The notes beneath the pieces were generated by a model. The model was not told where the DNA came from. It searched no databases and was given only the letters and a program-made list of their open reading frames with translations. Below are positions 4,261 to 35,293 of a stretch of 64,000 nt of DNA, piece after piece. Source of the DNA: Sphagnum compactum. Taxonomy: Eukaryota. The DNA is taken from NCBI GenBank assembly GCA_965153455.1, contig OZ234493.1:7368213-7432212 (forward strand). The letters are read 5' to 3'. A program made the translations under genes and the position numbers. Numbering within the stretch: the first letter of the stretch is position 1; each line of letters begins with the position of its first letter.

Positions 4261-7200
4261 TTAGGTCGTTGAGTTTGTCTTGGTCAAATGGACTGCAGCA
4301 TGATCCTCCAAATACTCCACACCCTGCATTTCTGTCAATCTGTGCACACACAATAAAAATTCACACGTCTTTAACAGATTCTAACCAAACGGAACAAATG
4401 TGACCACAAGAAACCTGGACTGGACTATCACAGCAAAAGACAACATAACAAGACGATGCTGACATTCTGAGTCTGCAGTGTGACAATTGAACTTTCTGAA
4501 CAGTAAAATGCAAATTTTACCTGCTACAAGTGCGATCCTTGGCAAACCCCAACTCATTGTCCACCAACAGATCCGCATCATCACTATGACTTGAGCGGGA
4601 ATTTTTCCTGCGGGGTGCATCTCGAATGGTCACCACCTTTGCAAACAGCTCCAATGCTGGTGCTTCTGCTGAACATAGGAAACGAGCTCTATGCTCATAC
4701 ATAACCTTCCCAACCAACCAAGCACACACTTAGAAACTTGTGACTGCCAGCCTATACGAAGCTCTAACCCATACGCTTGGCACCAAGCTTTGACCACTAA
4801 CCCTAGGTCACATTGTACACGTGCAAAATTGGGTGTTCAACTCTCCTCCAAAATATAGCATCACTCAAATAGGCAGTGATGTAATTCCCAAGTTCACAAT
4901 TACAAGTATTTACTATAACAAGAAACAGAGAGGATCTTACATCCACAAGAGTTACAAACCGATAAGCTGAGGAGCGGTTATGGGAACCAAACACAGGAAC
5001 ACCATCCAATGCCAGAGTGTGAAAACTTTCTGCTCCTCCAAGCCACACACAGTGCAATCCTCCATCAGCTAACTTTATGGATGCCATTGCCTTCTGCTTG
5101 TCTAATCAAGAGGCAAATGACATTGGGGTCCCCCACAAAATTCAGGGTCAAGGTCTCAAGTTCAGATCAATTACGGAAGAGTCCAATGTAGTCAGCTGCA
5201 CCCAATGGCATATCACACAGCTCGTGAAACTGGAAGAAGGCACACCCAGCAGCTGACAAAGGGACCTGCATGATCAGAGGGATGCCAACAACTTTCAAAA
5301 CCAGAATTGGCAAAGTAGTGCCATCTGTCTCTTATTATAAGCTGCTTGAAACACTGACCTGCAGTCTTCTACCCATAACCACTTCCACAGTTGTTGGCAC
5401 TGCTTTTTCATCGTGTAGCAGAGACTGAAATTTCATTTGCAATAACTCTGATGCTCCAGGACCAGTGAAATAGTGGCCTGCCACAGCCTGCAAAGCAAAA
5501 AATCTTTTGTTATTGATTCATGGGTTGTGGATGTGATCCAATGCAGATTCAATATGAATTTTGGGTATGCTGCTGATACAGAATGTTTTGAGAAGTTTGA
5601 AGTAGATTACCGCAGCCAGCTTCCGGTAATCAGTTGCTGAATCTATTTTGTGTATCACACACCTATCCTGCACATGAACAAAACATGTCAACAACAAATG
5701 CATTTGCCAACTGAAAAAAATGAAAATTCAACACTAGGAGAATGTGCAACCACCATGAGCTACAAGGATATAAAAGGACCAGCTGATTTCACACCAGATC
5801 ATCTAGAAGGTTCACATTAGACACAAAGGAGAGGATTGTTTGTGTCACAGTACTTTCAGACGAGCAATAAATGGCAGAAATAAATCCCTCTGCAAGCCAC
5901 CTTCATAGAGTTGATCAGGTGCCCTATTAGATGTTGATACTAGAACCTGTCACATGATCAACTGCGCATGTCAACTCATTGTACTGAGATTCCTTCCAGC
6001 ATCCAACTTCACTTCGGCTTCAGTAGCTTGAGATCCAGGGATGTTGAAGCTATGAACCTTGCTAGGCTGCACTGCTAGCACATTTAATATCTTTCATAAG
6101 AATAGAGAAATCTCCATTCTCACAACGAAGAAAGAACACAGCCAGGTTAACACTTCCTCAAGAAGCCACAGAAAGTTCCAAACTAGGAAAGACAAAAACA
6201 AAAAACAACAGTATGAACAAAAGTGCCAGTCTCACACTTGTTCAGGGACCATCAAGAGTAGTATGTATGCTAGCACATTTAACTACAAATCCCATCATGG
6301 TAGTATGTGAGATCTAAAATTGGGGCAGTGAAGATATGTACTTCCACAGCAAGAATAGTGTGCAAAAAACAGCTATATTACTCATAAGAGTGCAGAAATA
6401 CTCACAAGTCCTTGTTTGAACAGGTGGTCAAAAAGCCGATTCAAGATGAGAGCATCAGCAACATCAGTAACCTACACAACCATAAAGAAGATCAATCCAG
6501 CCTTCGAGGAGCCCCTTGATGTAAACTGCCAGATTGACAACAAAATAAGTGTCCGCTGATACATGCTCCCAAGATTTGCTCTGGGAATGAATATCCAAAT
6601 TAAAAACTGGTTCATTTTCAGGAGAGCCAACCATAAACTCGTCAATACAGAGCAAAATAGACTCTTCGACAATGTCCTCAGCCACAACCTCCAACGGATC
6701 CGTCATTCCTCTGCTTCTCTGTATTGTCACAGATCAACAAAACAAAAGTCTAGCTGAGTATGCTTAAATTCTTTTAACTGGAATACAAAAAAATAAAATG
6801 AGACGGCAAATTACAGCCCCCACAAATTCTTTAGCTGTTGTTAAACTTACATGAACAGCTGCTATAAATTCCTCAATATATGAGCTCGAAGCTAATAGAT
6901 CCCTAGACTCACACCTGTTGCTCCAAGGCAGTGTCATACAATTTAGCATGCAGCTTTACAAGAAACCCTAGTTTATAACTATTCATAGACTGCTCACTAA
7001 TTGCTAATAAGACAAAAGTGATTTGTCCAGGGTTTTGAAACAACAGCTTACTTGCAAACGAGTGTGTACATTGATCATGAAATCATGAAAGTGAATCCTT
7101 CTCTTTCTCCATGTCTTGGGCCTTGCAGATAAGGAATGAAACCATGTCAGTACCATTTCGTGCTGGAAGAAATAATGACAGAAGCTGAGAAACACTTAGT

Positions 7201-13900: not shown

Positions 13901-16031
13901 TCATGTCTTAAATTTGTTTGTGAGCATGTGACTAAAACACCAACAAACATGATGTGATAACACTTGGAAACTTAATTGTAATCTTTAAGCTATTTATTTT
14001 CTATCGAATTCATTTTGTAGTCACCTTATCTAACCATGTTACATTAGTGATTTCTTGTGGAAACTTTTGATTTTTTTGTGAGCTTTTTGGGGGAAAAGAA
14101 CATTTGGAAAGCAACGTTTATGGGTGTAAAACATGTCTAAAAACAAAATTCACCACTTTATGTGAAACTAAAGAGATTGAAAAAGAAATAAAGGTGGTGT
14201 TTAAAGTTTTATTACTTTTCATGATTTTTATTTTGATTTGCCATACCATGAATGATATACCATGAATTGCATGTTGCTATTCCATCTTCACATACCTACA
14301 TGGAGGGATTTTCAAGTGTGGATGACAATTCAACAACCATAGTAAACGTGCAATTAATACTAGGCAATTTCACATCCATGCCATTGACAACCTCCATGGC
14401 TCATAGGATTGGCAGCTATTACTCCCCACTCCCATCATTAACTCCCCACAATAAGTTTATGGAAATACATATAATAATTTGGCTAAAACTCTGAATAAAC
14501 AATTACAAAAAAGTTTGCATATGTAGAGTGGATTCCATAATTTGGAAGCACAAAAATAGTTACAATAAGTTGGTTGGTAGTCAAGAGACATGACTTTGTA
14601 AGAGAAGAAAAAGGGGACTCAATAGGTAGATGTTTTGGTGACCTAATCATCCCCAACAATCACCAAAAAAAGGGGCAAACGTTGAAAAGACAAAAACATA
14701 TTTGATGCAAAACAACATGTAGACGTATTAAACAATCAAGCATCAATTGTTCAAACAACCAAAAAAGCTCCCCTACAATGATTGAAACTTTCTCTTTGGA
14801 GAAACCCACAAACATGTTGAAGTACTTTTATGAGTAAAAAGTTATCCATGCACAAAAAATGGACAACCATAATGACTTTGATCCAATTCAAAATATGAAA
14901 AGAATGAGCATGCTACATTTTAAGAGCTTATGTAAAGTCTCACATATACCACTCGCATCCTCTCTCTGCGGGAATTATGGTTTCATTACTGAACTGATTT
15001 ATCTACATATCTGATTTCCCCCCAACATCATGAAATTGCATAATAACATTACCTTACTATCAATCCTTCAGTAGCAAGTGTATCATGGTTGTTAAAATAA
15101 GAGACCCATCAAATTGAGTGCCAACAACACAGCAGTGATCACCGTAGTACATTAACCATGTCTTGCAGAAAGAAACTCTACAAAAGCAGCAGCACTTTGC
15201 ACTTTGCATAGCAGCACAATGGCAGTGACTGGCTCTAATTACTTCCCCACTGAATTTGTCAGCTCATTACAGTGTACACATAAGTGTACAATAATGTGCT
15301 CAGACTTTAGGGCAAGCAGTTATATGGAAAAACCACATCTTGAGTTTCTATTGCATTTCCAGAAGCAACAGGAAAACTCAGTCATGATGTCAGATAACAC
15401 TCACAGAGGTGCATAGCCAATGAAACAAAGTTGATAGAATCCTCATTTCTTGCTGCCACAAGCTTGAGAGGCTATGCTTCATTCTAGTTCACCCCTCTAC
15501 AAGAAGCATCTACAGCAAGCCAAAGAGAGGCCTTCCTGGAGGGTACTGATTGGGGGGCCTCGTGCACCTCAGATATAACCTTTAGTAGTGTACCATAAAG
15601 AAACAAAGCCTACCATAGATTCAGGGTAGACAAATAACTAGATTGCAGCAATGCATTTCAAGCATATTTTTGTCAGTGTCCCGCATGAAGTTCCATTTGC
15701 ATGCAAAAATCTGGCCTGGTGCTATTAAACAGTTAAGTCAACAACAGAAATGGACTGCATGAAAACCCATCATTGTAAACAATATTGTCTTTTATCAACA
15801 TCCCCCAAGAAAAACTGGGATGGAAACCTCAAAATATGGTCTCTGTTGGCATCCACTGTACACAAGAGGCTCCTTTCTGGGAATGAGAACTGTGCACTAT
15901 GTATGTAAGCATACCCAATGAAGATAATATACATGAACAAACACAACAAATCAAAGGGCCACAAACAGTTTAAGAAGACAGGCACAAACAAACTGCACTT
16001 TGAAATTGTGCAAACCTTGATCAGGCCATAA

Positions 16032-21299: not shown

Positions 21300-23550
21300 T
21301 TGCCTAAAGTTATTTGCCTAAAGTTATTTCGCTATAGGGTTATGATGTAATCACCATGTTTCATTACGAGCTCACATAATTTGTTATTAGTTGAAATAAT
21401 TTATTATAGTTAAATAGGTTTCTTTTGTGTTGTTGTTTTAAATACCTTAGGTTATCGTATCCTAAACTTTTATAGGTTATTTTATTTTGAGTTATTTTAA
21501 ATTTTATTTTATAATATTCTTAATTATTCTTGGTTATTCACCCTAAAGGGTGTAGGCATGGTCAAGTAGACAAAAAAGTAGTCCACCCAAAATGCAATTT
21601 AAAAATGACATTTTTTTATTATATAAACACATGAAAGTAAATGAAAAACTTGTGTAAGTAGAAATATGAAAAAACATGGCCCTCCATTTAGTTTATGGTA
21701 AGTTGAATACAAAATTTGTATGTGGATTATAACATGCATAATTTGATAGTACACAAGTATTTTCTAAGACTTTCATGATTTGAAAATGGAAAACATTCAA
21801 TATTTCATCTACTTGTAACCCATTTTATAAAATAGGACATTACCTGCAAGTAGATGCAATTTTGTAAAATATATTTAAATCTACATGAAAATGTTCATAT
21901 TTCAAATTATAATATCAAAGTGAAATTTTATCTTCATATTAATCATTGAATAAAATAATATTCCTACTATCAATGCATTAATTTTTTTTTATGTTTACTT
22001 ATTATTTTTTGTGACAAGTAACATTTTTTGTCTACTTGACCATGCCTACACCCTAAACTATTCCAAACTAGATTTTTTTCGTTATTCTAAATTATTCCAC
22101 CCTAATTTGTTTTCAGTTATTTAAGTTGAACCTTTATAAGTTATTCTATGTTATTTTAGGCTAGTTACTATAAGTTTTTATTGGTTATTTTAATACATTC
22201 CACATTAGGGTATCATGGGTTATTCTTGATTATTTTAAATTAATTTAAAATATTTTACTATATGTTATTTATAGGTTATGTAACCCTAAAACAATATTTG
22301 TGATTATTTATTCTAAGTTATTCCAAACCATTATGGGTTATTTTATCATAAGTTAATCTAGGTTGTAACCTTATGATAACTTAGGATGGAATAGCCTAAA
22401 ATAACCAACAATAACCTAAAGTAAAATATTTTATAATAACTTATAATAGCCTAGAATGAAATAACCTAAAATAATTTCAAGTGGAATAATTTAGAATAAC
22501 AAAAAAAAATCAAATCAAATAACCTAGAATATAATAAGGTGGAATAACAAAAATAACAAAAAAACAAAAAACCTAAAAGAACTTAGAATAACTAAAAATA
22601 ACCTAAGGTGCAATAACTTATAATAACTTTAAATAACAATAGGTATAATAATTTATAATAACATAAGGTGTTACAGTTGATAATAACCTAAGGTTAAATA
22701 GCCTAAAATAGCTGAAAATGACCTTATTTAAAAATAACCTTAAGTGGAAACAACCTAAAATAAAATAAAAACTCATAATAACCTAGGGTGGAATAACTTA
22801 TAATAACCGAAAATAGGCTAGGGTGAAATAACAATAAATAATAACACCAAGTAAAATACTTTCAAATAGTCTAAAATAACATAAGGTGGAATAAAAAGAT
22901 GATTGAGAATAAAATAAAATAAAAACCAATAATAACCCAAGGTAAAATAGCTTAAGATGGAATAATCTAAATATCCTAAGGTGAAGTAACTTAAATAACA
23001 TAGGGTGCAATAGTTTAAATAACTTAAGGTGGAATAATTTAGAATAATAAAAAATAAGCTAAAGTAAAATAGTCTAGAATAACATAAGGTAGACTAACAT
23101 AAAATGATAAATAATTGCCTAAAATAGCTTAAAATAGTTCAAAGTGGATTAATAAAAAATAATCTAAGGTGGAATAACCTAAAATAACAAATAATAGCTT
23201 AAGGTAAAAATAACAAAAATAACATAGGGTGAAATAATTTATAATAACTTGTAATAAGTTAGTTTAGAATAGTTGAAACCTCAAATAACCTCAAATAATC
23301 TAGCGTGAAATAATTTAAAATAATATATAATCGTTTACTTTATAAAACTAAAAATAACTTAACATAGCCTAGGGTGTAATAATTTAGAATCACCTAGAGT
23401 GGGATTTTTTTTATAATAATTGAAAATAACCTAGAATAGCCTAGAATGGAATAACCTAGAATAGCTTGGGGTACAATAACTTATAATAGTTTATAGTATG
23501 ATAAATTAGAATAACCAAAGGTGGAATAACTAATGGTGGAATAACTCAAT
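21300..23550. repeat. AT-rich degenerate microrepeat array (aataacctaa / ttaggttatt) with two arms in opposite orientation
   Basis: Units read ttaggttatt/ttattcc up to ~22365 and ggaataacctaaaataa from ~22370 onward. Confidence 0.75.
21548..22053. mobile_element. MITE (non-autonomous DNA transposon), 506 bp, 30-bp perfect TIRs, TAAA target duplication
   Basis: gggtgtaggcatggtcaagtagacaaaaaa (21548-21577) and its exact reverse complement ttttttgtctacttgaccatgcctacaccc (22024-22053); taaa on both sides (21544-47, 22054-57); AT-rich non-coding interior. Confidence 0.9.
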
Positions 23551-24820
23551 TAACTTTTAATTAACTTTTAGTTCAATTGTAATTACCCTTTAGTTAATTT
23601 TCAGTTCACTTTTAATTAAGTTTTAATTAAGTTTTAGTTCACTTTCAATTAACTTTTAGTTAATTTATGGTTGAATCTCAATTCCTTTAATTAAATCTTA
23701 GTTCACTTTTAATTAAATTTTAATTCATTATTAATTCCCACACGGATGAACATGGGCCACACATGGGTCACTCATGGATGAACATGGGTCACATGTAAGT
23801 TGATTTTAAATTTTTTTTTTTTTTTTTGAACTAGGTGTTCAATGGGTATAAATAAAAGTAGAATCCCATATTATTTTCAATGTGTTCAACACCAGTTTTG
23901 GGTATATTTTCTTGTCACAAACTTGTTTTATTCTTATTTTGTTTTTGTAATAAAATCTTGTTGGATTTTTGTTTTTATTTTGTTTGTTTCGCAATTTGAA
24001 ATTGAAATTAGGCCTACTTGTGTTTTCGTTTTGGTTTACGAAATCTTGTAGATTTGATTGTTTTCGTGCTTGTGATAGTAAAAGATCAAATGGAAAAAAA
24101 TGAAATGCATCATTTCTTGATGTATGAATTTCATATTTGTATTTTCATCACCATACAACAATCAATTTGAACATAATGAACAAAGGTTAGTGAAAAACAG
24201 TTCAAGCAACTAATGTTCATTTTTTTTAAAAGTTTGAAATTTTGTTAATTACATACAAATGATTACTTAGTGTAAGGTTGTTTCACAAAGCAAAGAAGGG
24301 GTTTGGATGAAATTTTTTTATGTTTATTTTTGGTGTGTTTGTTTTGTTCTTTTGTAACCTTTGTAGAAATTCTTAAAAGCCTTAATTTTTTTGACATTTT
24401 GGGAACTTTGTTAAGGTTAATGAAAATCATTTCAAGGAACTATTTTTCACGTGTTGTATGAAAGTCAATCATTGCTAATTATGTACAAATAACTATTTAA
24501 TTTGGGGTTGTTTCACAAGATAAGAAGGGAAGCAAGGATGTTAGCTTGTAATTTGAATATGGTTCTCAAGGTAGAGGAACAATTTTGCCAAGGTGGTCTC
24601 CCATTGTTGGACTAAAACACAAGGATTGAATGTAATTTTTTCATATTGTTTGTAGTTTTGTTTTGTTTTTTTGAGACTTTTTAAAAATTATGGAATGTCA
24701 TGCCCGTACATGGCTTCATACATGATGGCCAGTTACGGGCATGCCCATGTGTGTTTTAGGGTTGATGTATAGTCTTAGGCGACTGTACGCCATTAGATAC
24801 TTAGGATTTGTTGACGACGG

Positions 24821-24828
24821 TATAAAAG
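24821..24828 (+). promoter_or_regulatory. Candidate TATA box of the retroelement
   Basis: tataaaag ~125 bp inside the 5' end, followed by a pyrimidine-rich stretch. Motif match only. Confidence 0.4.
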
Positions 24829-25279
24829 GTCCAAACCTTTCTTTCTCCTTTAGTTTTTCTAGAATTCCTTTGTCAGGAGTTTTCTCCATCATAAGCTAGG
24901 ATTTCTAGATGCTCACGGCGGCCATTGCACGGCCACCGTCTACATACACTTCATTTCTTTCTTGCTTTGCATTTCAATTCTAGAAAAACTCTATTCCCTG
25001 TTGCTTCATGTTGAAAGCAACAGATTTCTTATGCTTTTGAAATTCTTGAGTTGTTGCTACTCGTGTTGTTGCTGTCGAAAGGAGCGCGTTACTACTGTTG
25101 CTACTCGTGTTGTTGGAGGGAGCTTTGCGTTTCTTACAACCAACCAAGAGCTTTGCGTTTCTTACAACCAACCAAGCAGGGACAAACGAAGTCGGGACAC
25201 TAGAGAGCAGGTGTCAAAACTTCTCTATTTCTCCCATTCTTTTTCGTTCTTCAAGTTGTCGGGTAAAAAAAAAAAAAAA

Positions 25280-25930
25280 ACGTTGCGAGTTGTAGCGCTG
25301 TCGGACATCGCAGCAACGCTCAGAGGCCCAGCGCGCTGCTGGACATCGCAGCAACACGCTACGAGGTCGAGCGCGCTGCGACGTCCAGCGCGTTGTTGGC
25401 CATCGCAGCAACGTTGCGACGTCCAGTGTGCTGCTGCAGCAGCGCCGCAAGAACGCTGCAAGCTGCAGTGCGTTGCCGGCCAGCGCCGCAACAATGCTGC
25501 GAGCTGCAACGCTCCCGGCCATCGTTGCAGCGTTGTGAGGAGCTGCAGTGTAGCGCCGCCGCCCGCCATTGCCGTAGCGGCGGCTGAGCTCTACACGTTC
25601 GACGTCCGACTTTCGTCGGATGTCCGTCGGATTTTCGTCCGACTTTCGTCGGACGTCCGTTCAACTTTCGTCCGTCGAACTTCCGTCCAACGTCCGGCCT
25701 GCGTCATTGCTGACGTCATCGTCCTGCGTCCGGCCTGCGTCACTGTTGATGTCATCGGCTTGCGTCCCTGCTGACGTCATCGTCATACGTCTTGCTTGTG
25801 TCATTGCTGACGTCATTGCCCTACGTCCTGCTGACGTCATCCACTTGCCGTCCTGTGCCCTGTTGTCTTGTCGACTTGACGTCCTACACCCACGTCCTGC
25901 CGCCTTGACGTTTTACGTGATACCGTAATG
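25280..25930 (+). repeat. CpG-dense microrepeat leader inside the retroelement
   Basis: Three successive unit types: catcgcagcaacg(c/t)tgcg..., gtccgactttcgtcggacgtccg and gctgacgtcatcg...ctgcgtcc. Far richer in GC and CpG than the flanks. Confidence 0.85.
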
Positions 25931-26118
25931 CAGTCCTGCCTTCTACACATTGTGGTCATGCATTTTGTGGTCTTGTGGTCTTGTGTCTTGTAGCTTATCT
26001 TGTTGCATTCTGCCGTACTACTGTCCTGCGATTAGGGAGATTCAAACCATACATTGTGTTAGAATTTTGTAATTGAGGGATTATATTGGTACAAAATTTT
26101 GGGGCATGGGACAACACC

Positions 26119-27425
26119 ATGTCCTCGGATGATGAAAGTAGCATTACTCATCCAGAGCCAAGGTATCAGTTACGAAGTAACACACAACCCTTTGAACCAA
26201 TATCTTTGAGTTCACGATCTTCACGACGGTACCACCAAACATCCAACAAGCTAGCCACGAATGGATAGAGGGAGATGAAGAAGAGATAGTTTACGCTCAA
26301 GCTACTGAAAGCTTGAGGGTGGTTCCTACTGACATTCAACATGGACCAAAGGTTTTACAAAGGTTCAAAGTAGCCCATAAGCCCTTGGTCAAAGCTTTGT
26401 CTAGTTTTGAAAGCATGGAGAGCCATGGCGAATTGATTAAGCCATTACTCCGTCAGCTAATCACCTGGACACCACCTAAGGAAGGGATTACATTACTAGA
26501 GTTCTTTGGTGTATTGGTACAGGTCTCGAAGCCCTACTACAGTCAGGGATGGTGGTTCGAAGGTATTTCTACGTAGACATTGATCCTATTGCAAGGCAAG
26601 TGGCAGCATCGAGAATGATGGAGCTCACAACCAGATTTCCACAACAGTTTACAACCACCGCATGGAAGGCCAGTTTCACTTTCTTGCCCCATGACATACA
26701 ATTAATTCAGAATAAGCATATGGAATTACTTGGCCCCGTGGACCTCATCATTTCAGGTTGGGAGTGTCAAGGATTTTCAGCAGCTGGATTTGGAGAAGGC
26801 TTGAGTGACACAAGATCCGGTCTCTTCACGGACATGGTACGATTGATCACCTGGGCTCAATCCATTTCCCCTACGCTTGGTTATGTAATTGAGAACACCC
26901 CTTCTTAGCTTGACCAGAGGGAGAAAGTCCAGGAGCACTACACACTTGTCAAACATTACCTTGGAGAGCCGCTCCTACTCGATGCGGCACAATGCGGTTC
27001 TTATGCGCACCGGCTGCGCAACTGGTGGACCAACCTTGCACCACTTTCAATTTTGCAGTTGGCTCTGAGATACACCATCAGAGACCACAACCTGCAGGTT
27101 TCTCACATATTGGATGATCAGAGCTCTTGCCAACCAGTTACAAGGCAAGATAAACCTCCTTGGTTTCCTGCGAATACAATAGGAAAACCAAGAGGTGCTT
27201 GGCCCACCTTTGTCTTTCCCTGGAGCACACGCCTTTCAGGGAGATGGACCAGGCTTGGTGTATCGTCGTGCTTCAGCCACTTGGGATGAACCAAGCCTAG
27301 AAGAAAGAGAAAGGGCTATGGGGTTCCAAACTGGCACTACTAGTCACACCAAGGTGACTAGATTGGAGCGTAACGCTCTACTGGGGAGAAGCATGGACCT
27401 GAACTCCCTTACATGGTTGTTGGTA
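26119..27425 (+). pseudogene. Retroelement-encoded C5 cytosine DNA methyltransferase domain (frameshifted, one premature stop)
   Basis: Joined frames give motif I LLEFFG/GIGTG (1-bp frameshift ~26510), II YVDID, IV DLIISGWECQGFS, DTRSGLF, VI YVIENT, a TAG at 26906, VIII SYAHRLRNWWTN, a frameshift ~27212, IX EERERAMGF and X RNALLGRSMD. Probable ATG at 26119. Confidence 0.9.
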
Positions 27426-27749
27426 ACCTGTGTACTCTTTCAAATGTACACAACACCAACACTGACTCAATCAGCTTGCAGCTCTGACGATGCAACCACA
27501 TGGCACCTCGACCAAGTACACTTGCCTATCTTCAACACTCTACATTTCACTCTCAGTGTTGGGGGGGAGGAGGTACCATGTAATTTGACTCAAGTTATGT
27601 CCAATACACCTAGAGGTACATCAGCTTCTGGAGAAACAATTACAACCTTCTACGAATCTACGGAGTTGGATAATGGAGAACCCAATACACCAGGTTCTTC
27701 AAACACACTTTCCAACTCCATTCCATGTGTTTCCAACTACCCTTTTGTT

Positions 27750-29150
27750 ATGGGGAACCAGCTCACCAAGAAGGAGAGAGACCATGTCACAGACTTGCTA
27801 ATTAAGTATGAGAATGTGTTCGCATTCTCAATGAAAGACTTAGGTAGGTGTAAGACCATGCAGTTCTCTATAGACCTTACAGATGAGACACCCGTCCATC
27901 GAAGGGGGCATAGGTTGAGCAAACATGAATGGGAATTGGTAGATGAAAGATGCAAAGAGCTCCATGAGGCCGGTCTCATTCAGCCATCAAGTTCTGATTT
28001 CGCAGTCGCTATAGTAATGCCAGCAAAGAAGAATTTAGCTGGATTATGGACTGAGAAAAGGATGTGCGGGGATTATAGGCCTTTGAACCTGGTTACACCT
28101 CAGGACAGGTACCCCATGCCCATCCCTGAAGAACTGTTTGATAGCATTAGAGACTCAAACATCTTCACAATTGTGGATATGAGGCAAGGCTTCAACCAGA
28201 TTGTGGTCGTTGCAAAGGATCGCAAGAAAACGGCATTCCATGGAAGCAACAAGTTGTGGGAATGGCTTGTGATGCCTTTTGGATTGAAGAATGCACCTGT
28301 CTTCTTTCAGCGAGTCATGGACCAGGTTCTCGAAGGGGCAGATTTCCTAAAATGCTACATAGATGATGTCCTAGTGCATAGCAAGGGATTCTTGCAACAC
28401 TTGGCTCATCTTGAGGAGTTATTCAAGAGGCTCCACGAAGTCAATATGAAGATCCATCCTAAAAAGTGTGAGTTTGCTGTCACCTTAGTAGTCTACCTTG
28501 GACATAGAATTTTGCCAAATGGTATTATGGCTCATTGGGCCAAAGTAGTAGCCATTTTGGAGATGCCCGATCCTACTGATGTTCACACTTTGAGGAGCTT
28601 CATCGGACTATGTAATTACTACAGGATTTATGTCCAAGACTTCAGTACTATTGCTCATCCTCTCTATGCATTGTTAAAGAAGATGTTGCTTGGACATGGA
28701 GTGAAGAGGCTCAGGAAGCTTTCAACACACTCAAGGAAAAGCTTTCAGAGTTCCCCATTCTGAGAAGACCTGATTTCAGCAAGGTTTTCATTCTACACAC
28801 TGACTGGAGTGCTCTTGGTATTGGTGCTGTTCTTGGCCAACTTGATGAGGATGGCAAGGAATATGTTATCGCTTATGCATCCCGAAGCAACAACAAGGCT
28901 GAGAGCAACTACTCTTCATACGAGGGGGAGTGTCTTGCTGTTGTATGGGCCGTCATACATTTCAGGCCCTATCTTTATGGCACTGAGTTCACTTTGTATA
29001 CCGACCACCAGCCTATCAAGTGGTTGATGACCAATGACAAGCTTACTGGTAAGCTAGCTCGTTGGGCGCTTATATTTCAGGAGTATGAGTTCAAGGTTAT
29101 TCACCGACCTAGTATTACACATCAGAACGCGGATACCATGTCGCGGAGAC
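27750..29150 (+). pseudogene. Gypsy-type reverse transcriptase and RNase H (frameshift ~28682)
   Basis: RMCGDYRPLN, DRYPMP, DMRQGFNQI, KTAF, VMPFGLKNAP, YIDD (28356), KKCEF, YLGH, LRSFIGLCNYYR; RNase H LHTDWSALGIGAVL, YEGECLAVVWA, YTDHQP, KLARWAL, NADTMSR. In frame with DNMT motifs IX-X within ORF 27195-28763. Confidence 0.96.
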
Positions 29151-29439
29151 CCCTCACTACCTTTGAAGATTTCTCAGAAGCCAGACAAGACTTCGACCAA
29201 ATTCCGGCTGTACATGTATCTTATGCATCTAGTTATCTTGCACTACTGCAATGTAACCTGGTTGAACATCCCATTTTGGATATATGGGAGGACTTGGACA
29301 CTTTGAGGTTTCTTCAGCATGGGGAATACCCTCCCCAAGTTACATCAAGTCAGCGGGATCGCATACAACAACGATCCAAACGCTACTCATGGAAGGACAA
29401 TCACCTCGTCCGATGCTTACCACAAGGCGACAGAGTGGT

Positions 29440-30500
29440 TCCACCACCGCATGAACAGCTTGGTCTTATTCAGAAGGTACACTCGGAGCTTGGACACTTT
29501 GGAGTTAAGCGTACTTATAGCCTTCTCGTTCCTCATTACCATTGGAGAGGTATGTATGCTCAAGTCCGGGACGTCATCGCTAGGTGTGAACAATGTGATA
29601 GAGTGAGAGCTTCCTTCTCCTCTCGACAGCTCACCCTTTCTCCACTACCTATTCAGGGCATGTTCTATCGTTGGTCATGTGATTTAGCTGGAGAATTACC
29701 ACAGACCTCCAGGGGTAATGTCTACATCATGATTATGATTGAGCATTTTTCAAAGTGGGTCGAACTTGTTGCGCTACCAGACAAGTCATCACACAGCACT
29801 AGCTAGGCTTTCTTACAACAGGTTCTAAGTAGGTTTGGGGCTTGTGCTGAGTGCCTTACTGATCAAGGATCAGAATTCAGGGGAGAATTCCAAGACCTAC
29901 TTGACCATGCTCTCATTGACCATCGTCGGACTTCAAGAGATCATCCCCAAGCTGATGGCCTTGCAGAAAGGATGGTTCAAACATGCAAGAAGGGACTTCG
30001 GAAGATTTGCCTCACTAAGAACAAAGAGGATTGGGACCTGGCCCTCCCTTACATCGCCATGGGTTACAGGATGTCCAAACACGCCTCTTTGTTTCATTTC
30101 TCCCCTTACTTTTTACTTTTTGGGAGACACCCCATTCCACTTTCTTCCATTACTGCTCAAATGCACCAGGTTGTGGACTTGGATTCCCCAGTCACTTGGG
30201 CTAGGGTCATTGCAGAAAGGGCTGCTTTATTCAGGAGGGTTATGCCCATGGCCATGGAAAACCTATCCATTGCACAACATCGAGACACCTTATGGTATGC
30301 ACACACACGAGGTGGCAGTTAAAAACCTAAGGTGAGACAATTTGATGTTGGTGATTTTGTGTATCTTCAGCGACAACCCAATGATACTTTAGACACTTCT
30401 TCCGGTCGCACTATCTTGAGGATTAAGGCGATCAGGCCTTCAGGTGTGTTGGAGCTACAAGGAGCTGACGGACGCACAATTCGGGATCATTCCAAAAATT
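29440..30500 (+). pseudogene. Integrase (HHCC zinc finger, DDE core, C-terminal region), with in-frame stops at 29804 and 30320
   Basis: VHSELGHFG...RCEQCDR; WSCDLAG, IEHFSKWVE, LTDQGSEF, HPQADGLAERMVQTCK; SPYFLLFGRHP; FDVGDFVYL. RT-RH-INT order is that of Ty3/gypsy. Confidence 0.95.
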
Positions 30501-30574
30501 ATGCGCCTTGCCACCTGCCAAACTTGGACCCTACCATCATCACGTCGACTTGGATTCCTCCACTTGATTATCCA

Positions 30575-30727
30575 TGTCAGGTATGTCAGAGGACGGACGA
30601 TGCTGATCAGATGCTGCTTTGCGACAACTGTAATGGTGGATACCATCTCTTCTGCCTCAAGCCGGAGCTCACTCAAGTTCCCGTTGGCAATTGGTACTGT
30701 TCATCATGTTCTCCTACAACACCTTGA
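30575..30727 (+). CDS. C-terminal PHD finger (C4HC3) of the retroelement polyprotein
   Basis: CQVC-x8-LLCDNC-x4-HLFC-x-PELTQVPVGNWYCSSC then TGA at 30725-27; same frame as the integrase C-terminus. Confidence 0.92.
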   Translation, partial: CQVCQRTDDADQMLLCDNCNGGYHLFCLKPELTQVPVGNWYCSSCSPTTP

Positions 30728-30768
30728 TTCCTACTCAGACCATGCCATGCTTTTCCCGGCTCAGGTCT

Positions 30769-31131
30769 GGGGGGGGGATATATGAGAATTTCATCTTAGC
30801 CTCACTTATGCATTGTATATATATGTGTGCATGCATCTCTTTTTAGTTGATTGGTTTATACATTTGACTGGCTTTAATTTTTTTGTTTAGTAAGATTTAC
30901 TCTGTATTTACATCCTTACGACACTGTACGTCACGACACTACACGTCACGACAGCATACATGAGAATTTCATCTCAGCCTCACTTGTGCATTGTATATAT
31001 ATGTGTGCATGCATCTCTTTTTAGTTGATTGGTTTATACATTTGACTGGCTTTAATCTTTTTGTTTAGTAAGATTTACTCCGTATTTACATCCTTACAAC
31101 ACTGTACGTCACGACACTACACGTCACGACA
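30769..31131 (+). repeat. Polypurine G9 tract followed by two near-identical 176-bp tandem copies (period 178) forming the element's 3' end
   Basis: G-run at 30769-30777; copies 30778-30953 and 30956-31131 (ata(t/c)atgagaatttcatct...cactgtacgtcacgacactacacgtcacgaca). Confidence 0.93.
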
Positions 31132-31679
31132 GGAATCCTAAAAATTCATGTTGAAGTTAAGATCGTTTAAGTTGAAATCATGTTTACATATTGTTGTTTT
31201 GTAAGATTTTGTGTTGATTGAGATGAGTAAACTAACATGTGCTTTTTTTTGAACCTTGTGATTGATTGGGATGAAGAATTTTAATCTTTTGAGCTTGAAG
31301 GTGGTTGTAGAAATTTTTGGAACTTTGTGATATATTTTGAAGCTTTGTTAAGTTTAATGAAAAACATTTCAAGGAACTAATCTTTATGTGTTGACAAAAG
31401 TCGTTAAATTATGTGCAAACAAACATTTAATCTAAAGTTATTTCACAAAACTATGTGTTTGTTTTGATTTAGCACATTATACCAATCTAGGATTATAGTG
31501 TCACTAGGATTTTTATTAAAGGAGGCAATAACAACTATAAGTTACAACCCTAAAATTTTAATCTATAGTTATCGATTTAGGGTTTGGAGTAGCCTTTGGA
31601 GTTAAAGTATTTGCAACACAAAAGGGTCAAAGATGTGATCATCTTGTGAAAGCTACCATTTAAAGGTCTAATCATGGTT

Positions 31680-31875
31680 AAAGGAATGGTAAAAAAACGA
31701 GCAATCATGGGTGAAGGAATGGCCAAAAATGAGCAATCCTATGTTAAGGAATAGCCAAAAATGAGCAATCCTATGTTAAGGAATGGCCAAAAATGAGCAA
31801 TCCTATGTTAAGGAATGGCCAAAAATGAGCAATCCTATGTTAAGGAATGGCCAAAAATGAGCAATCCGATGTTAA
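31680..31875. repeat. Tandem repeat, 32 bp x ~6
   Basis: Unit aaggaatggccaaaaatgagcaatcctatgtt. Confidence 0.92.
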
Positions 31876-32469
31876 TGAGTATGGAGTCGATCTAGTGATG
31901 TGACTCCTTTATGGCCATGGATGTACAAATTCAGGCTACACATTTTCAAATATTTCCCCTTTTTTCCCCCTTTGTGCTTAGAACAAACCATTTCTTAAAA
32001 AAAAAAGAAAAAGAAATCTGGCGATATTTATTTAGCCAGGAAAAAAGAAAAAGAAAAAAAGACTGATTGAAAGCTGATGTAGAAAAAATGGTGGTCATCA
32101 GTTGGAAGATTTAGCCAAATATAGCTATAAAACTGAAATAAAACTAAAATTTAATTTCATCCTTCTATATGTTTGGCTACACAATGAAAACCAAATATAT
32201 AAATATGATGATGACGACGGATAGATGATGATGATGATGATGATGATGATAATCATACTAATAATAATAATAATAATAATTTTCCCTCATTTCTGGCGAC
32301 AAAAAACCTCCCAAATCATTGTTTAAAAAAAAAACTCTTTTTGGCGAAACTTCGCCAGTAAAAGAAAAACCCGCTGGGATTCCCCCTGGCAACAACAAAA
32401 CACTCTTTGCGCACTCTCTGTTAGTGTGGTCTTGAACACATCGACGAATCGACGAGAACACACACAAGC

Positions 32470-35293
32470 ATGCTTCTGCAGCGTCTATGGCGGCTATGGC
32501 CGCAACAACAACCTCACTGCCTTCTTCGCGCCATCGCTAACAACGTCTCTTCTGCCTGCCAATCTGTGCTGCCTCACGAAGATACTGTACTCGGTGAGTT
32601 TTTCACAGTCATTAGTCTCAGCCTCTTTTAATTAATTAATTTTTTTAAAAAGAAAAAGCAATGTAGTCATGTGTTCTGGAGCAAACAACAAAAAAAGAAA
32701 GGTGAGTGAGTTTCTGTTTCCCTGTTAAGTTTTGATGTCCACTGTGTGACCAAAATTGCTTCTTGTTTTGCTTACTACTGTCTAAGAAGTTGTTCATCTT
32801 TAAAAGATGAAGGCAGTAGGTATAGAAGGTAGTAGAGAAGGGGAGTCGAAAAGTGTCTGAGGAATGTTGCACATTTCTTCCTTTCTTACATGTTGCTTGC
32901 TTCCTGCTTCTGCTCAATTCTGTTTCTAAGGACCTGGAAAGTTGTGTTGTGGCAACATGTAATGTTTCAGGCTTTTCAAAAAATAATTTAAAAAAAAATA
33001 ATTTAAAAAATATTATCATTATTATTTTCAAAAATAATTTTGAGTGCTTTAGATCAGTACCTATGTGTCAAATCTGGCAAAGTGAAGTAAGTTGAAGTAG
33101 TAGACTTCAGTAGACTTTTTTTAGAGTCAGAAATTTCTTGTTTCATGGCATCAAAACCCTCAAACGCATGATGGATGTGCATACATTTTGGATATGATGA
33201 CACTGGGTTGCTTGATTGCTATGCCCCATAAAGACCAAACCATCGGTGCTTGTCTGAGTCTGGCCATATCTTGTCATCAGCGTATTACAGTTGGCTAATG
33301 ATCTTTGATGCTCAACTACAAATGTGCAGATTCCAGAGCGTGTCGGGGGATTAGTAATGTTACTGCGAGTGCATTGAGACCATGGAGCTCCCATGCACCA
33401 TTGATTCACAGTTTGCAACGTATGTGGGCTCTGCAACCTGGATAATCAGAGCTCTAACATGTCACCTTCTCTTGATAGTCCATTCAATGTTTGACTGACA
33501 CTGCTTGTTTTCAAATTTGAGAATATTTTTCCATGAACTTGTTATATTTGTGCTCTCAGTGAATCTGTGAGATTGGAAGGGCTGAGGACTATAGTGACTC
33601 TTGACAGTATAGTGGGTGGTTCCTTCTCTGGACAGAACAGCAATTCAGCAGTTGGTGGTGACGGCTTCAGGGCCCGATAGACCAGGCATTGTAGCCAGGC
33701 TGTCAAAGCGAGTTCTTGAATGTGGAGGTAATGTGGCAGAGAGCCGGATGACAAGATTGGCTGGTGACTTTACCATTCTGATGCTAATCACATTTGATAT
33801 AGCGTAAGTCAGACCTCAATGTTTGTATCCTGTTTATTCACCTGTGTTGCCTGCTCATGCTCTTAGGTTCATGTATCTATGAATGTCACTCAGCTAATTC
33901 AGGGTTTAGGGTTTAGTCTTGCAATCCTCAAATGGGTTGTGTTTGAGTTGATGGCTATGGTGTGACAAAGGTGTCTGTTTCTTGAGTCACGAGCAGGGTT
34001 TTGTGCATAATGATGCACATTTGTGGTCTGGGTTTCCTGCTGTCATGGATTGCTCAAAGTTATGTACAGGTGTGTACAGAACAGCGCGGAAGGCAGAACA
34101 ACTGCGCAACTCTCTCTTAGAGATTGACGGTCTTCAGGTTGGTATTTGAAGTTCAATTGCTTGCCATACAAACTGTATTGTCAACCAGTGCTTGTGCATA
34201 TACAATATGCCTGGGTCACTGAACAGTTTGCAATATTGTTTGGAGAAGCTAGGGGTTTCAGTAGTGTTAAAAAGGAGGAAGAGCAATGTTCCACTTTGCA
34301 GCAATCTTATCGAAGTTATGGGTTTTTTCCAGGTTGGCACAAGATGGACATCTGATGAGCGCCTGAAAGAGACACAGCCACTTCGTAAGTTTCGAAAGAT
34401 TTTGCTGCGGGGTGCAGACAACCCAGGCATGTTGTGTCTGAACCCTTGAAGTTGCAGTCATTACCCTGTAAATGATGATATCTTTGCATTGCAGTGATGG
34501 AAGCAGAGCACTGATTTACATCAGATCATCACTGAGGCAATCTGCTCAATTCTGCTGTAATACCTTGGTTATAGGGTGTAAATTGCCTGCATACAGCTGC
34601 ATGCACCATTATCCTGCTTATCAATGTAGACAGCTATATTTGGGCTTGCTACTTGTTGTACCTTTCAATTCTGTTTCAAACCAGAGGGTGCAATTACGCC
34701 AAATGGGTACATCATCATTCATTTTGGTGCTCTGTGCTATCCTTGTGCAAGCCCTTGATTGAAAATGGTGAAGAGGAAGGTATGTGGATCCATCTCCTGC
34801 TAAGGTGCTTGTTATTTATCTGCAGCATGTGGGGAGGTGCAGGTCTTGTATACAATGTGACTGAGTATCTCTTTTCTCATGGTATCAACATTGAAAATCT
34901 GGAAACCCACACTGAACAGGTGCCAACAAGCCTTGACTCCTTGGGAGTAGTTGAATTCATCAAATTATTGAATATTCAAGATCTAATGCTGACAAATCTT
35001 CCTCCCTTGTTTTGCATATAAACTAAACTGCATGCTGACACTTTATATGCCAGCATATGTATGTAGTTTAGTTTCTGTGGGTGGGTATGACTAAACAGGC
35101 ACCATCTGGAGGAGCAACACTGTTCATGATGGCAGGAGTGATAGCAATGCCAGTGAGATTGTCAACACGCAAGCTTATTCACAACTTGGATACATTGCAA
35201 ACCACTCTGGGTGTGGATATTGCTATCTCCAACCTTCCTGTTTCTACCAGCTATAAGTTTCGGCTTCCTTCTCCACCTCTGGCTATTGTATAA
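32470..35293 (+). CDS. Double ACT-domain protein of GcvR (glycine-cleavage regulator) type with an N-terminal transit-like extension, multi-exon
   Basis: Exons read QQLVVTASGPDRPGIVARLSKRVLECGGNVAESRMTRLAGDFTILMLI | TARKAEQLRNSLLEIDGLQ | ...KILLRGADNPG | LVYNVTEYLFSHGINIENLETHTEQ | APSGGATLFMMAGVIAMP...TLGVDI...TAA 35293. The 5' exons (ATG 32470, MLLQRLWRLW...) are less certain. Confidence 0.8.

Follow-up and report, generated by a model that had tools for sequence, protein, structure and literature searches.

Evidence for a DNMT3-type methyltransferase built into the Pol polyprotein of a Ty3/gypsy-type retrotransposon family in Sphagnum

Cytosine methylation is the main route by which plants silence their transposons, and for this reason a transposon that carries its own de novo methyltransferase is counter-intuitive. 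A 64,000-nucleotide stretch of the Sphagnum compactum genome (GenBank assembly GCA_965153455.1, contig OZ234493.1, positions 7,368,213 to 7,432,212 of the forward strand; hereafter the window, numbered from its first nucleotide) raises this very case, as a first-pass annotation made from the sequence alone had noted a cytosine DNA methyltransferase (DNMT) fused ahead of a gypsy-type reverse transcriptase (RT). Is the DNMT a genuine component of a mobile element, what type of enzyme does it resemble, and what might an element do with it? We propose, with a probability of roughly 0.88, that positions 24696-31131 (on the forward strand, as are all element features below) represent a copy, dead and with an internal deletion, that belongs to a high-copy retrotransposon family of Ty3/gypsy type in a Sphagnum-like moss, and that the Pol of this family has a DNMT3-type enzyme built in between the protease and RT.

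The region from 24000 to 34000 was read from stop to stop and compared with Pfam. DNMT, RT, RNase H, integrase and PHD finger domains were found in this order. PF00145 (DNA_methylase) matched 26480-26908 with 36.4 bits against a cut-off of 22, and the whole DNMT domain, with motifs I to X, spans 26445-27455. The RT (27891-28646, with a YIDD box; RVT_1, 95 bits, and tblastn) lies in an open reading frame (ORF) at 27183-28763. It is followed by RNase H (28691-29122; RT_RNaseH, 134.6 bits), an integrase consisting of an H2C2 zinc finger and a DDE core (29444-30364; Integrase_H2C2, 56.5 bits), and a C-terminal PHD finger (30575-30709; PF00628, 50 bits within 30323-30727) that ends at a natural stop at 30725. 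The rve domain of the integrase core was recognized in two weak pieces on either side of a stop, the score being weak because the stop splits the domain.

Within the DNMT domain, motif I (split by a frameshift near 26510) is followed by VDID, GWECQGFS, ENT, HRLRNWWTN, ERAMGF and LLGRSMD. Motifs IX and X share the ORF 27183-28763 with the YIDD box of RT. Since Pfam confirms each of the domains and motifs IX-X stand in the open frame of RT, the observation of a DNMT fused to RT is correct. The first-pass annotation had listed these seven motifs in canonical order and had called the arrangement a true fusion; both statements held, and the profile search that it proposed returned all of the expected domains, with rve as the weak one.

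In order to see whether the arrangement recurs, we scanned moss-associated metagenome contigs with P0002, an 820-residue protein that is the closest intact relative (90% identity over the DNMT). Six search patterns were used, four of them RT or RNase H peptides. At least 600 pattern matches were obtained, of which 586 were confirmed as related stretches, and the best 80 of these at least 586 stretches (L001-L080) were examined. In all 80 loci the DNMT immediately precedes RT. The DNMT is thus a trait of the family and not a one-off capture, a possibility that the first-pass annotation had put forward for checking. A gag region was found further upstream in 61 loci, and 16 of the other 19 have less than 1.5 kb of sequence ahead of the DNMT. 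As the query itself contained a DNMT, the best 80 loci are biased towards DNMT-bearing copies.

A full-length relative, L066 (5558-14873, about 9.3 kb), revealed the layout of the complete element: a terminal repeat A, a CpG-rich leader, gag, protease, DNMT, RT, RNase H, integrase and PHD finger in one frame, a G-run, and then the repeats B, A and B. In L066, repeat A1 (5558-5849) is followed by the leader, gag begins at about 7083, the PHD finger ends at 14176, and B1, A2 and B2 occupy 14229-14404, 14406-14697 and 14698-14873, respectively. A1 and A2 are 91.8% identical, and B1 and B2 95.5%.

Comparison with the related loci delimited a single copy in the window, spanning 24696-31131 and flanked on both sides by the 4-bp target-site duplication (TSD) GGAA (24692-24695 and 31132-31135). 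Repeat A1 (24696-24978) begins with TG at the point where homology among copies starts; it is 283 bp long, against about 290 bp in the family, and 89% identical to repeat A of L066. At the other end, a polypurine-tract-like G-run (30769-30777) directly precedes repeat B1 (30778-30953), which is followed by B2 (30956-31131). Both B repeats are 176 bp long and end with CA, they are 96.6% identical, and the element terminates in 3' direction at the CA of B2. Other copies have a repeat A2 between the two B repeats, which this one lacks. A plain self-comparison of the window displayed no flanking pair of long terminal repeats (LTRs); the repeats emerged only against other copies. A 59-nt direct repeat at 24398 and 31335 was rejected as part of the element, as it falls beyond the TSD and forms part of a host repeat with a 230-bp period.

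These features recur in the family. The elements begin with TG and end with CA, and the 4-bp TSD is perfect in five of eight copies including that of the window, retains three of four bases in two, and is unclear in one. The G-run ahead of B1 was present in the window and in all seven other copies shown, interrupted by A residues in two of the seven (L060 and L067). One to three bases separate B1 from A2, with longer inserts in two of seven copies, and because B1 ends with CA and A2 starts with TG, the junction looks as though two ends of the element had been joined to each other. In the 59 sources that gave repeat matches, the patterns were ABAB in 11 (plus two variants), BAB in 8 (plus one variant), AB in 9, A alone in 14, B alone in 11, and ABA and BA in one each; ABB was found in the window alone. 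The nine AB-only loci (L009, L011, L020, L026, L040, L043, L044, L048 and L053) have no A or B match of at least 100 bp past B1. The AB forms could be products of recombination between B1 and B2.

The leader of the window copy (24979-26238, 1.26 kb) is homologous to that of L066 and is non-coding in full copies. Its observed/expected CpG ratio is 1.2, compared with 0.42 for the coding part. The same contrast was found in 15 of 15 loci, with medians of 0.95 for the leader and 0.36 for the coding part. The segment 25291-25900 has a G+C content of 62% and is built of tandem repeats, mapped at 25295-25841. Four TGACGTCA palindromes lie in the leader at 25711-25839, against 0.39 expected over the whole window.

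At 26238|26239, about 2.8 kb has been deleted from the interior of the element. Window positions 26041-26238 match L066 6697-6894, while from 26239 onward the window matches L066 from 9690 onward, so that the whole of gag and the protease is gone; no gag or protease match was found within the window. From 26239 the copy is collinear with L066, from the DNMT through the 3' untranslated part, at 92.9% nucleotide identity. Relative to L066, its closest relative, the reading frame is broken at three points, with one nucleotide lost after 26510, two after 27215 and one after 28681, the last just ahead of RNase H, and in-frame stops are present at 26906, 29804 and 30320. The first two losses and the stop at 26906 fall inside the DNMT domain, and the stops at 29804 and 30320 in the integrase. 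The first-pass annotation had placed frameshifts at about 26200, 26510, 27212 and 28682. The latter three were borne out by the comparison with L066, while the one at about 26200 proved to be the deletion junction. It follows that the ATG at 26119 is part of the leader and not of pol. Its boundaries of 26119-30727 have to be replaced by 24696-31131, which takes in the terminal repeats. It had rightly regarded the copy as inactivated, and had missed the loss of gag, the protease and one terminal repeat.

The other moss copies are decayed as well. A forward-strand ORF of at least 400 residues was found in only five of the 80 loci, and DNMT, RT and RNase H are open together only in L066 (847 residues). 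The breaks are mostly stops, and indels are rare. We compared window 26239-30727 with the loci that were collinear over at least 3 kb; for the 45 listed of these 53 loci, the transition/transversion ratios were 4.6-7.7, and 12-20% of the transitions fell in CpG. To judge from these substitution patterns, the excess of transitions may be a footprint left by methylated cytosines that were deaminated in more than one sequence context. We also found that the Sphagnum gene models P0009, P0268 and P0296 are patchworks of protease, DNMT, integrase and PHD pieces of the element. In metagenome annotation, fragments are called 'site-specific DNA-cytosine methylase' or 'transposase InsO' and can be mistaken for bacterial genes.

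Which type of DNMT does the element carry? The DNMT peptide of the window, with its one stop read as X, was compared with the sequences in PDB. The catalytic domains of DNMT3A, DNMT3C and DNMT3B were retrieved first (E of about 1e-4), followed by M.HhaI. A profile made from 38 DNMT members of the family (A1) scored 94 bits with DNMT3A, about 80 bits with DNMT3B and DNMT3C, 57 bits with tobacco DRM, 45 bits with Arabidopsis DRM2, 41 bits with M.HhaI and 20 bits with DNMT2. DNMT1 and chromomethylases in PDB were not matched by this profile at E<=0.01. The match to DNMT3A consisted of three collinear stretches, corresponding to motif I, motifs IV-VIII and motifs IX-X. The order of the motifs is thus linear and not permuted as in DRM, as had been recognized from the motifs alone. 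We further modelled the naturally intact DNMT domain of P0029 with AlphaFold2 (mean predicted local distance difference test, pLDDT, 95.3; predicted template modelling score, pTM, 0.93). In a Foldseek search with this model, the top 50 matches were all DNMT3A/B/C chains, with about 20% identity and a target-normalised template modelling score of about 0.8 for chains of the catalytic domain. By sequence profile and predicted fold, the DNMT of the element is DNMT3-like. No PWWP or ADD domain was seen in the element.

The conservation of the motifs was counted over 120 non-redundant domains of the family, motif IV being matched in 118. The catalytic Cys was kept in 118 of 118, and the Glu-Asn of motif VI in 112 of 120. 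The residue ahead of the catalytic Cys was most often Glu (73 members), followed by Pro (35), Ser (5), Asp (4) and Cys (1). The catalytic signature as a whole (the catalytic Cys, the Glu of motif VI, the Arg of motif VIII and the glycines of motif I) is kept across members with only 30-45% identity, from hosts ranging from chlorophytes to mosses.

With regard to the remaining Pol domains, the integrase of the window is 50.6% identical to that of P0008. The nearest solved relatives of the PHD finger are those of WSTF, KMT2D/C, CHD4, KDM5, ATXR5, BAZ2A/B, AIRE, PHF21A and UHRF1. Most of these PHD fingers bind histone H3 tails that are unmodified at K4 or R2. Pfam detected no chromodomain in the Pol region of the window; the PHD finger stands alone at the tail of the integrase.

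The nearest proteins with a named organism were from Sphagnum compactum (98%), S. balticum (88%), S. magellanicum (87%) and the liverwort Calypogeia fissa (68%). Twenty rows of sequencing runs from 14 studies held the stretch or a part of it, and 14 of these rows, including one labelled 'moss metagenome', carried 0.54-0.58 of the sampled words. DNA runs of four coded organisms were among those with shares of about 0.55, whereas RNA runs carried 0.14-0.21, a share to which we attach no weight. Given these nearest named relatives and runs, the window is bryophyte DNA, most probably of a Sphagnum, and the lineage resides in a bryophyte as the first-pass annotation had supposed.

An exhaustive HMMER search extended the comparison to 1648 cluster representatives at E<=1e-3, including 147 at E<=1e-30. 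Two domain orders were found. In one, which we call T1 and which applies to the majority of the long proteins, the order is (protease-)RT-RNase H-DNMT-integrase-PHD; a named member is the 'pol' of Scenedesmus sp. PABB004, of chlorophyte type. The other, T2, is gag-protease-DNMT-RT-RNase H-integrase(-PHD) and is displayed by the moss family and a minority of the proteins, with named members from several Closterium species, Sphagnum and Calypogeia. The first-pass annotation had suggested that intact siblings may exist. None was found in the moss sample, as described below; uninterrupted polyproteins with the same architecture do occur, namely P0359 (2358 residues, with all seven domains), P0364 (2352 residues) and P0129 (2188 residues). 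The family is part of a clade of DNMT-bearing gypsy elements in the green lineage, within which both domain orders occur. The Glu-Cys and Pro-Cys forms of motif IV are each found in both orders. Some algal polyproteins with RT, RNase H, DNMT, integrase and PHD in this order (P0013, P0018, P0058, P0060, P0182, P0094 and P0351) reach 1848-4177 residues, with long extra regions ahead of RT or past the PHD finger.

We constructed trees of the DNMT (120 rows) and of the backbone consisting of RT, RNase H and integrase (40 rows: 34 T1, taken at random from 42 kept, 5 T2 and the window), both of them without outgroups such as host DNMT3 or gypsy RTs from elements without a DNMT. On the DNMT tree the label T1 or T2 needs to change only once, with all 78 T1 rows lying beyond one branch (91 in the Shimodaira-Hasegawa-like approximate likelihood ratio test, SH-aLRT). 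On the backbone tree the T2 members, including the window, form one side of a branch with a support of 100. As both trees part T1 from T2, the DNMT and the backbone diverged together. Judging from these trees, a single DNMT-bearing ancestor and one relocation of the module would be the simplest reading of the two orders; two separate captures of a DNMT may also lie behind them.

What, then, might the enzyme do? We consider it possible, at odds somewhat short of even, that functional elements produce the DNMT alongside RT and integrase and use it to methylate their own DNA, while the PHD finger steers integration. The first-pass annotation had spoken of a self-methylating lineage, a label that should be read as a hypothesis. 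The DNMT would be delivered as part of gag-pol along with the other two enzymes, and would methylate the new DNA copy, either the cDNA or the fresh insertion, de novo. The PHD finger on the tail of the integrase would direct integration to chromatin with unmodified H3 tails. The copy in the window is capable of none of these steps. Methylation of new copies has been proposed for SymbioDIRS-Dnmt3 elements in the discussion of PMC5890265.

Several observations weigh against our interpretation of the element and its enzyme. The repeats are not arranged as in a canonical LTR element, and this unusual arrangement is combined with a DDE integrase. None of the 80 moss loci is fully intact, in-frame stops interrupting gag-pol at one place or another in each. 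In motif IV, Glu-Cys takes the place of the canonical Pro-Cys in the window (GWECQGFS, at about 26780-26803) and in 73 of 118 members. Among 46 ungapped moss copies, the ratio of nonsynonymous to synonymous substitution rates (dN/dS) of the DNMT was 0.36, compared with 0.43 and 0.66 in two wrong frames; given these controls, purifying selection on the DNMT within the moss is not clearly shown, and an RT control contained just two usable copies. To our knowledge, no gypsy-borne DNMT3 with demonstrated enzymatic activity has been reported. The Klebsormidium DNMT gave no methylation in yeast, a negative that its authors do not regard as decisive because human DNMT3B failed in this host too (PMC5890265).

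The alternative that survives best accepts a conserved DNMT and assigns it another target: host DNA near insertions or genome-wide, whereby host methylation would be manipulated or mimicked, RNA, or no target at all if the domain is a mere DNA-binding or tethering module. The frequent Glu ahead of the catalytic Cys fits such a role, as does the negative result with the Klebsormidium domain in yeast, and several alternative roles are listed by the authors of that 2018 study (PMC5890265). On the other hand, the yeast result is shared by human DNMT3B, the catalytic signature has been retained at 30-45% identity, and the predicted fold is confidently DNMT3-like. Taking both sides into account, we regard a different target as rather unlikely, though it deserves consideration.

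Methylation of the element's own DNA can also be placed within a broader scenario, which we find more doubtful still when all of its parts are taken together. An old green-lineage clade of DNMT3-bearing gypsy elements would have persisted from chlorophytes through Zygnematophyceae into bryophytes. The DNMT module would have been acquired once and then moved from the linker between RNase H and integrase to that between protease and RT, in the ancestry of Closterium, liverworts and mosses. The Glu-Cys enzyme would be catalytically active and would mark the DNA of the element itself by de novo methylation, and the PHD-tagged integrase would pick chromatin in which H3K4 is unmethylated. The CpG-rich leader, with its TGACGTCA sites, might act as a methylation-sensitive switch, so that the element would set its own epigenetic state.

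The remaining explanations fare far worse. A host-serving gene domesticated from the element might be suspected from the Sphagnum gene models over such copies (P0009, P0268 and P0296); these models are patchworks, however, hundreds of copies are similarly decayed, and the copy in the window has three frameshifts, three in-frame stops and no pol start, making domestication very improbable. A one-off event, in which a fragment of a host DNMT lies beside an ordinary gypsy element or was captured by it once, or in which the assembly is chimeric, is not favoured by anything we found except that the broken window copy, deprived of gag and protease, might by itself suggest a scrambled locus, and it is practically dismissed by the frame shared between motifs IX-X and RT, the 80 of 80 collinear loci, the uninterrupted polyproteins of 2188-2358 residues with the DNMT between protease and RT, the TSD enclosing the whole unit, and the 14 runs with half or more of the sampled words, in rows from 14 studies. 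That the contig is algal or other contaminant DNA, as the algal origin of distant relatives (Closterium, Scenedesmus) and the metagenomic origin of many close ones might hint, is equally negligible, as the relatives with 87-98% identity reside on contigs of 13.5 Mb (S. compactum), 17.9 Mb (S. balticum) and 18.2 Mb (S. magellanicum) and the 68% relative on a 66.6-Mb contig of Calypogeia fissa, while the algal relatives show just 30-45% identity and the window flanks are AT-rich and CpG-poor, as opposed to the Ala- and Gln-rich distant polyproteins with the order RT-RNase H-DNMT.

The surroundings of the element consist in part of simple host repeats: an AT-rich array of units of about 10 to 35 bp at 22350-23750, the repeat with a period of about 230 bp at 24168-24518, which recurs beyond the element at 31335-31393, and a 32-bp tandem array 3' of the element at 31661-31910. 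Six other long ORFs of the window gave no Pfam match, and no second related element was found within the window. A short open piece at 33613-33807 on the forward strand may resemble an ACT-type regulatory domain and could represent a host-gene exon.

We found no paper on elements of this kind in land plants, in a literature coverage that leaves out subscription journals. Within the same coverage, gypsy-borne DNMT3 was found only in PMC5890265 (Klebsormidium) and bioRxiv 10.64898/2026.05.21.726589; the latter gives 'streptophytes (Gypsy-DNMT3)' as a known class. What is new here is a land-plant host for DNMT3-bearing gypsy elements, which had previously been described only in algae. The two-order clade, the anatomy of the termini and the host range are added to what was known of such elements. 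With hundreds of copies in peat moss and relatives in liverworts, Closterium and chlorophytes, the role of the enzyme for the element can now be put to the test in land plants and algae that are tractable, and natural intact enzyme domains are on hand for assay. The clade also provides a case study of the relocation of a domain inside a polyprotein. In addition, there is an annotation hazard, in that element fragments are automatically named 'site-specific DNA-cytosine methylase' in moss metagenomes and also enter the Sphagnum gene sets as protein models.

How does the element compare with known systems? The catalytic domains of animal DNMT3A, DNMT3B and DNMT3C are its best matches by profile and fold, with motifs I-X collinear and the signatures of motifs VIII and X shared. 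The differences are the low identity of about 20%, a motif IV that is mostly Glu-Cys, and a longer stretch between motifs VIII and IX in the element. Plant DRM enzymes differ in their permuted motif order, the order in the element being linear.

Concerning the element itself, the family has the order protease-RT-RNase H-integrase with gag upstream, as Ty3/gypsy elements do, gag and protease having been lost from the window copy, and the TG...CA ends, the short TSD and the polypurine tract likewise agree with this class. Two identical flanking LTRs are not present; instead the repeats are split, following A...B-A-B in the family and A...B-B in this copy. Chromoviruses also bear a chromatin-reader module at the C-terminus of the integrase, presumably for target choice; in their case it is a chromodomain, and here a PHD finger, accompanied by a DNMT. 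With a PHD finger and no chromodomain, the element is not a chromovirus.

The arrangement A-coding-B-A-B is described for DIRS elements (PMC5890265, Fig. 1 legend). According to the same paper, SymbioDIRS-Dnmt3 of Symbiodinium shares with our element a Dnmt3-type DNMT in Pol, this repeat arrangement and the coexistence of two domain orders. It uses a tyrosine recombinase, whereas the moss element has an H2C2 and DDE integrase, TG...CA ends and 4-bp TSDs. The DDE integrase and the TSDs indicate that the element is not a DIRS element. The EpiLTRs, or DAM-LTRs, as presented in bioRxiv 10.64898/2026.05.21.726589, are also gypsy-like elements with acquired DNA methyltransferase domains. Their DNMT is sister to DNMT4 and, along with an adenine methylase, has been added to pol at its 3' end, in contrast to the DNMT3-like domain without an adenine methylase described here.

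The closest counterpart is KnitGypsy-Dnmt3 from Klebsormidium nitens (PMC5890265). Both have an intronless, non-rearranged Dnmt3-like DNMT in a gypsy Pol ORF and a DDE integrase. The repeat arrangement A-coding-B-A-B given in the Fig. 4 legend of that paper is found in L066 and many other loci, the window lacking A2. They differ in their hosts, a moss in our case, with a liverwort, Closterium and a chlorophyte harbouring relatives, and in copy number, which amounts to hundreds here, while K. nitens is described as having fewer copies than Symbiodinium. There were no Klebsormidium proteins among the organism-named matches of our protein searches, and the two were compared by description. The moss element would work in a similar way to the Klebsormidium Gypsy-DNMT3 elements and very probably belongs with them.

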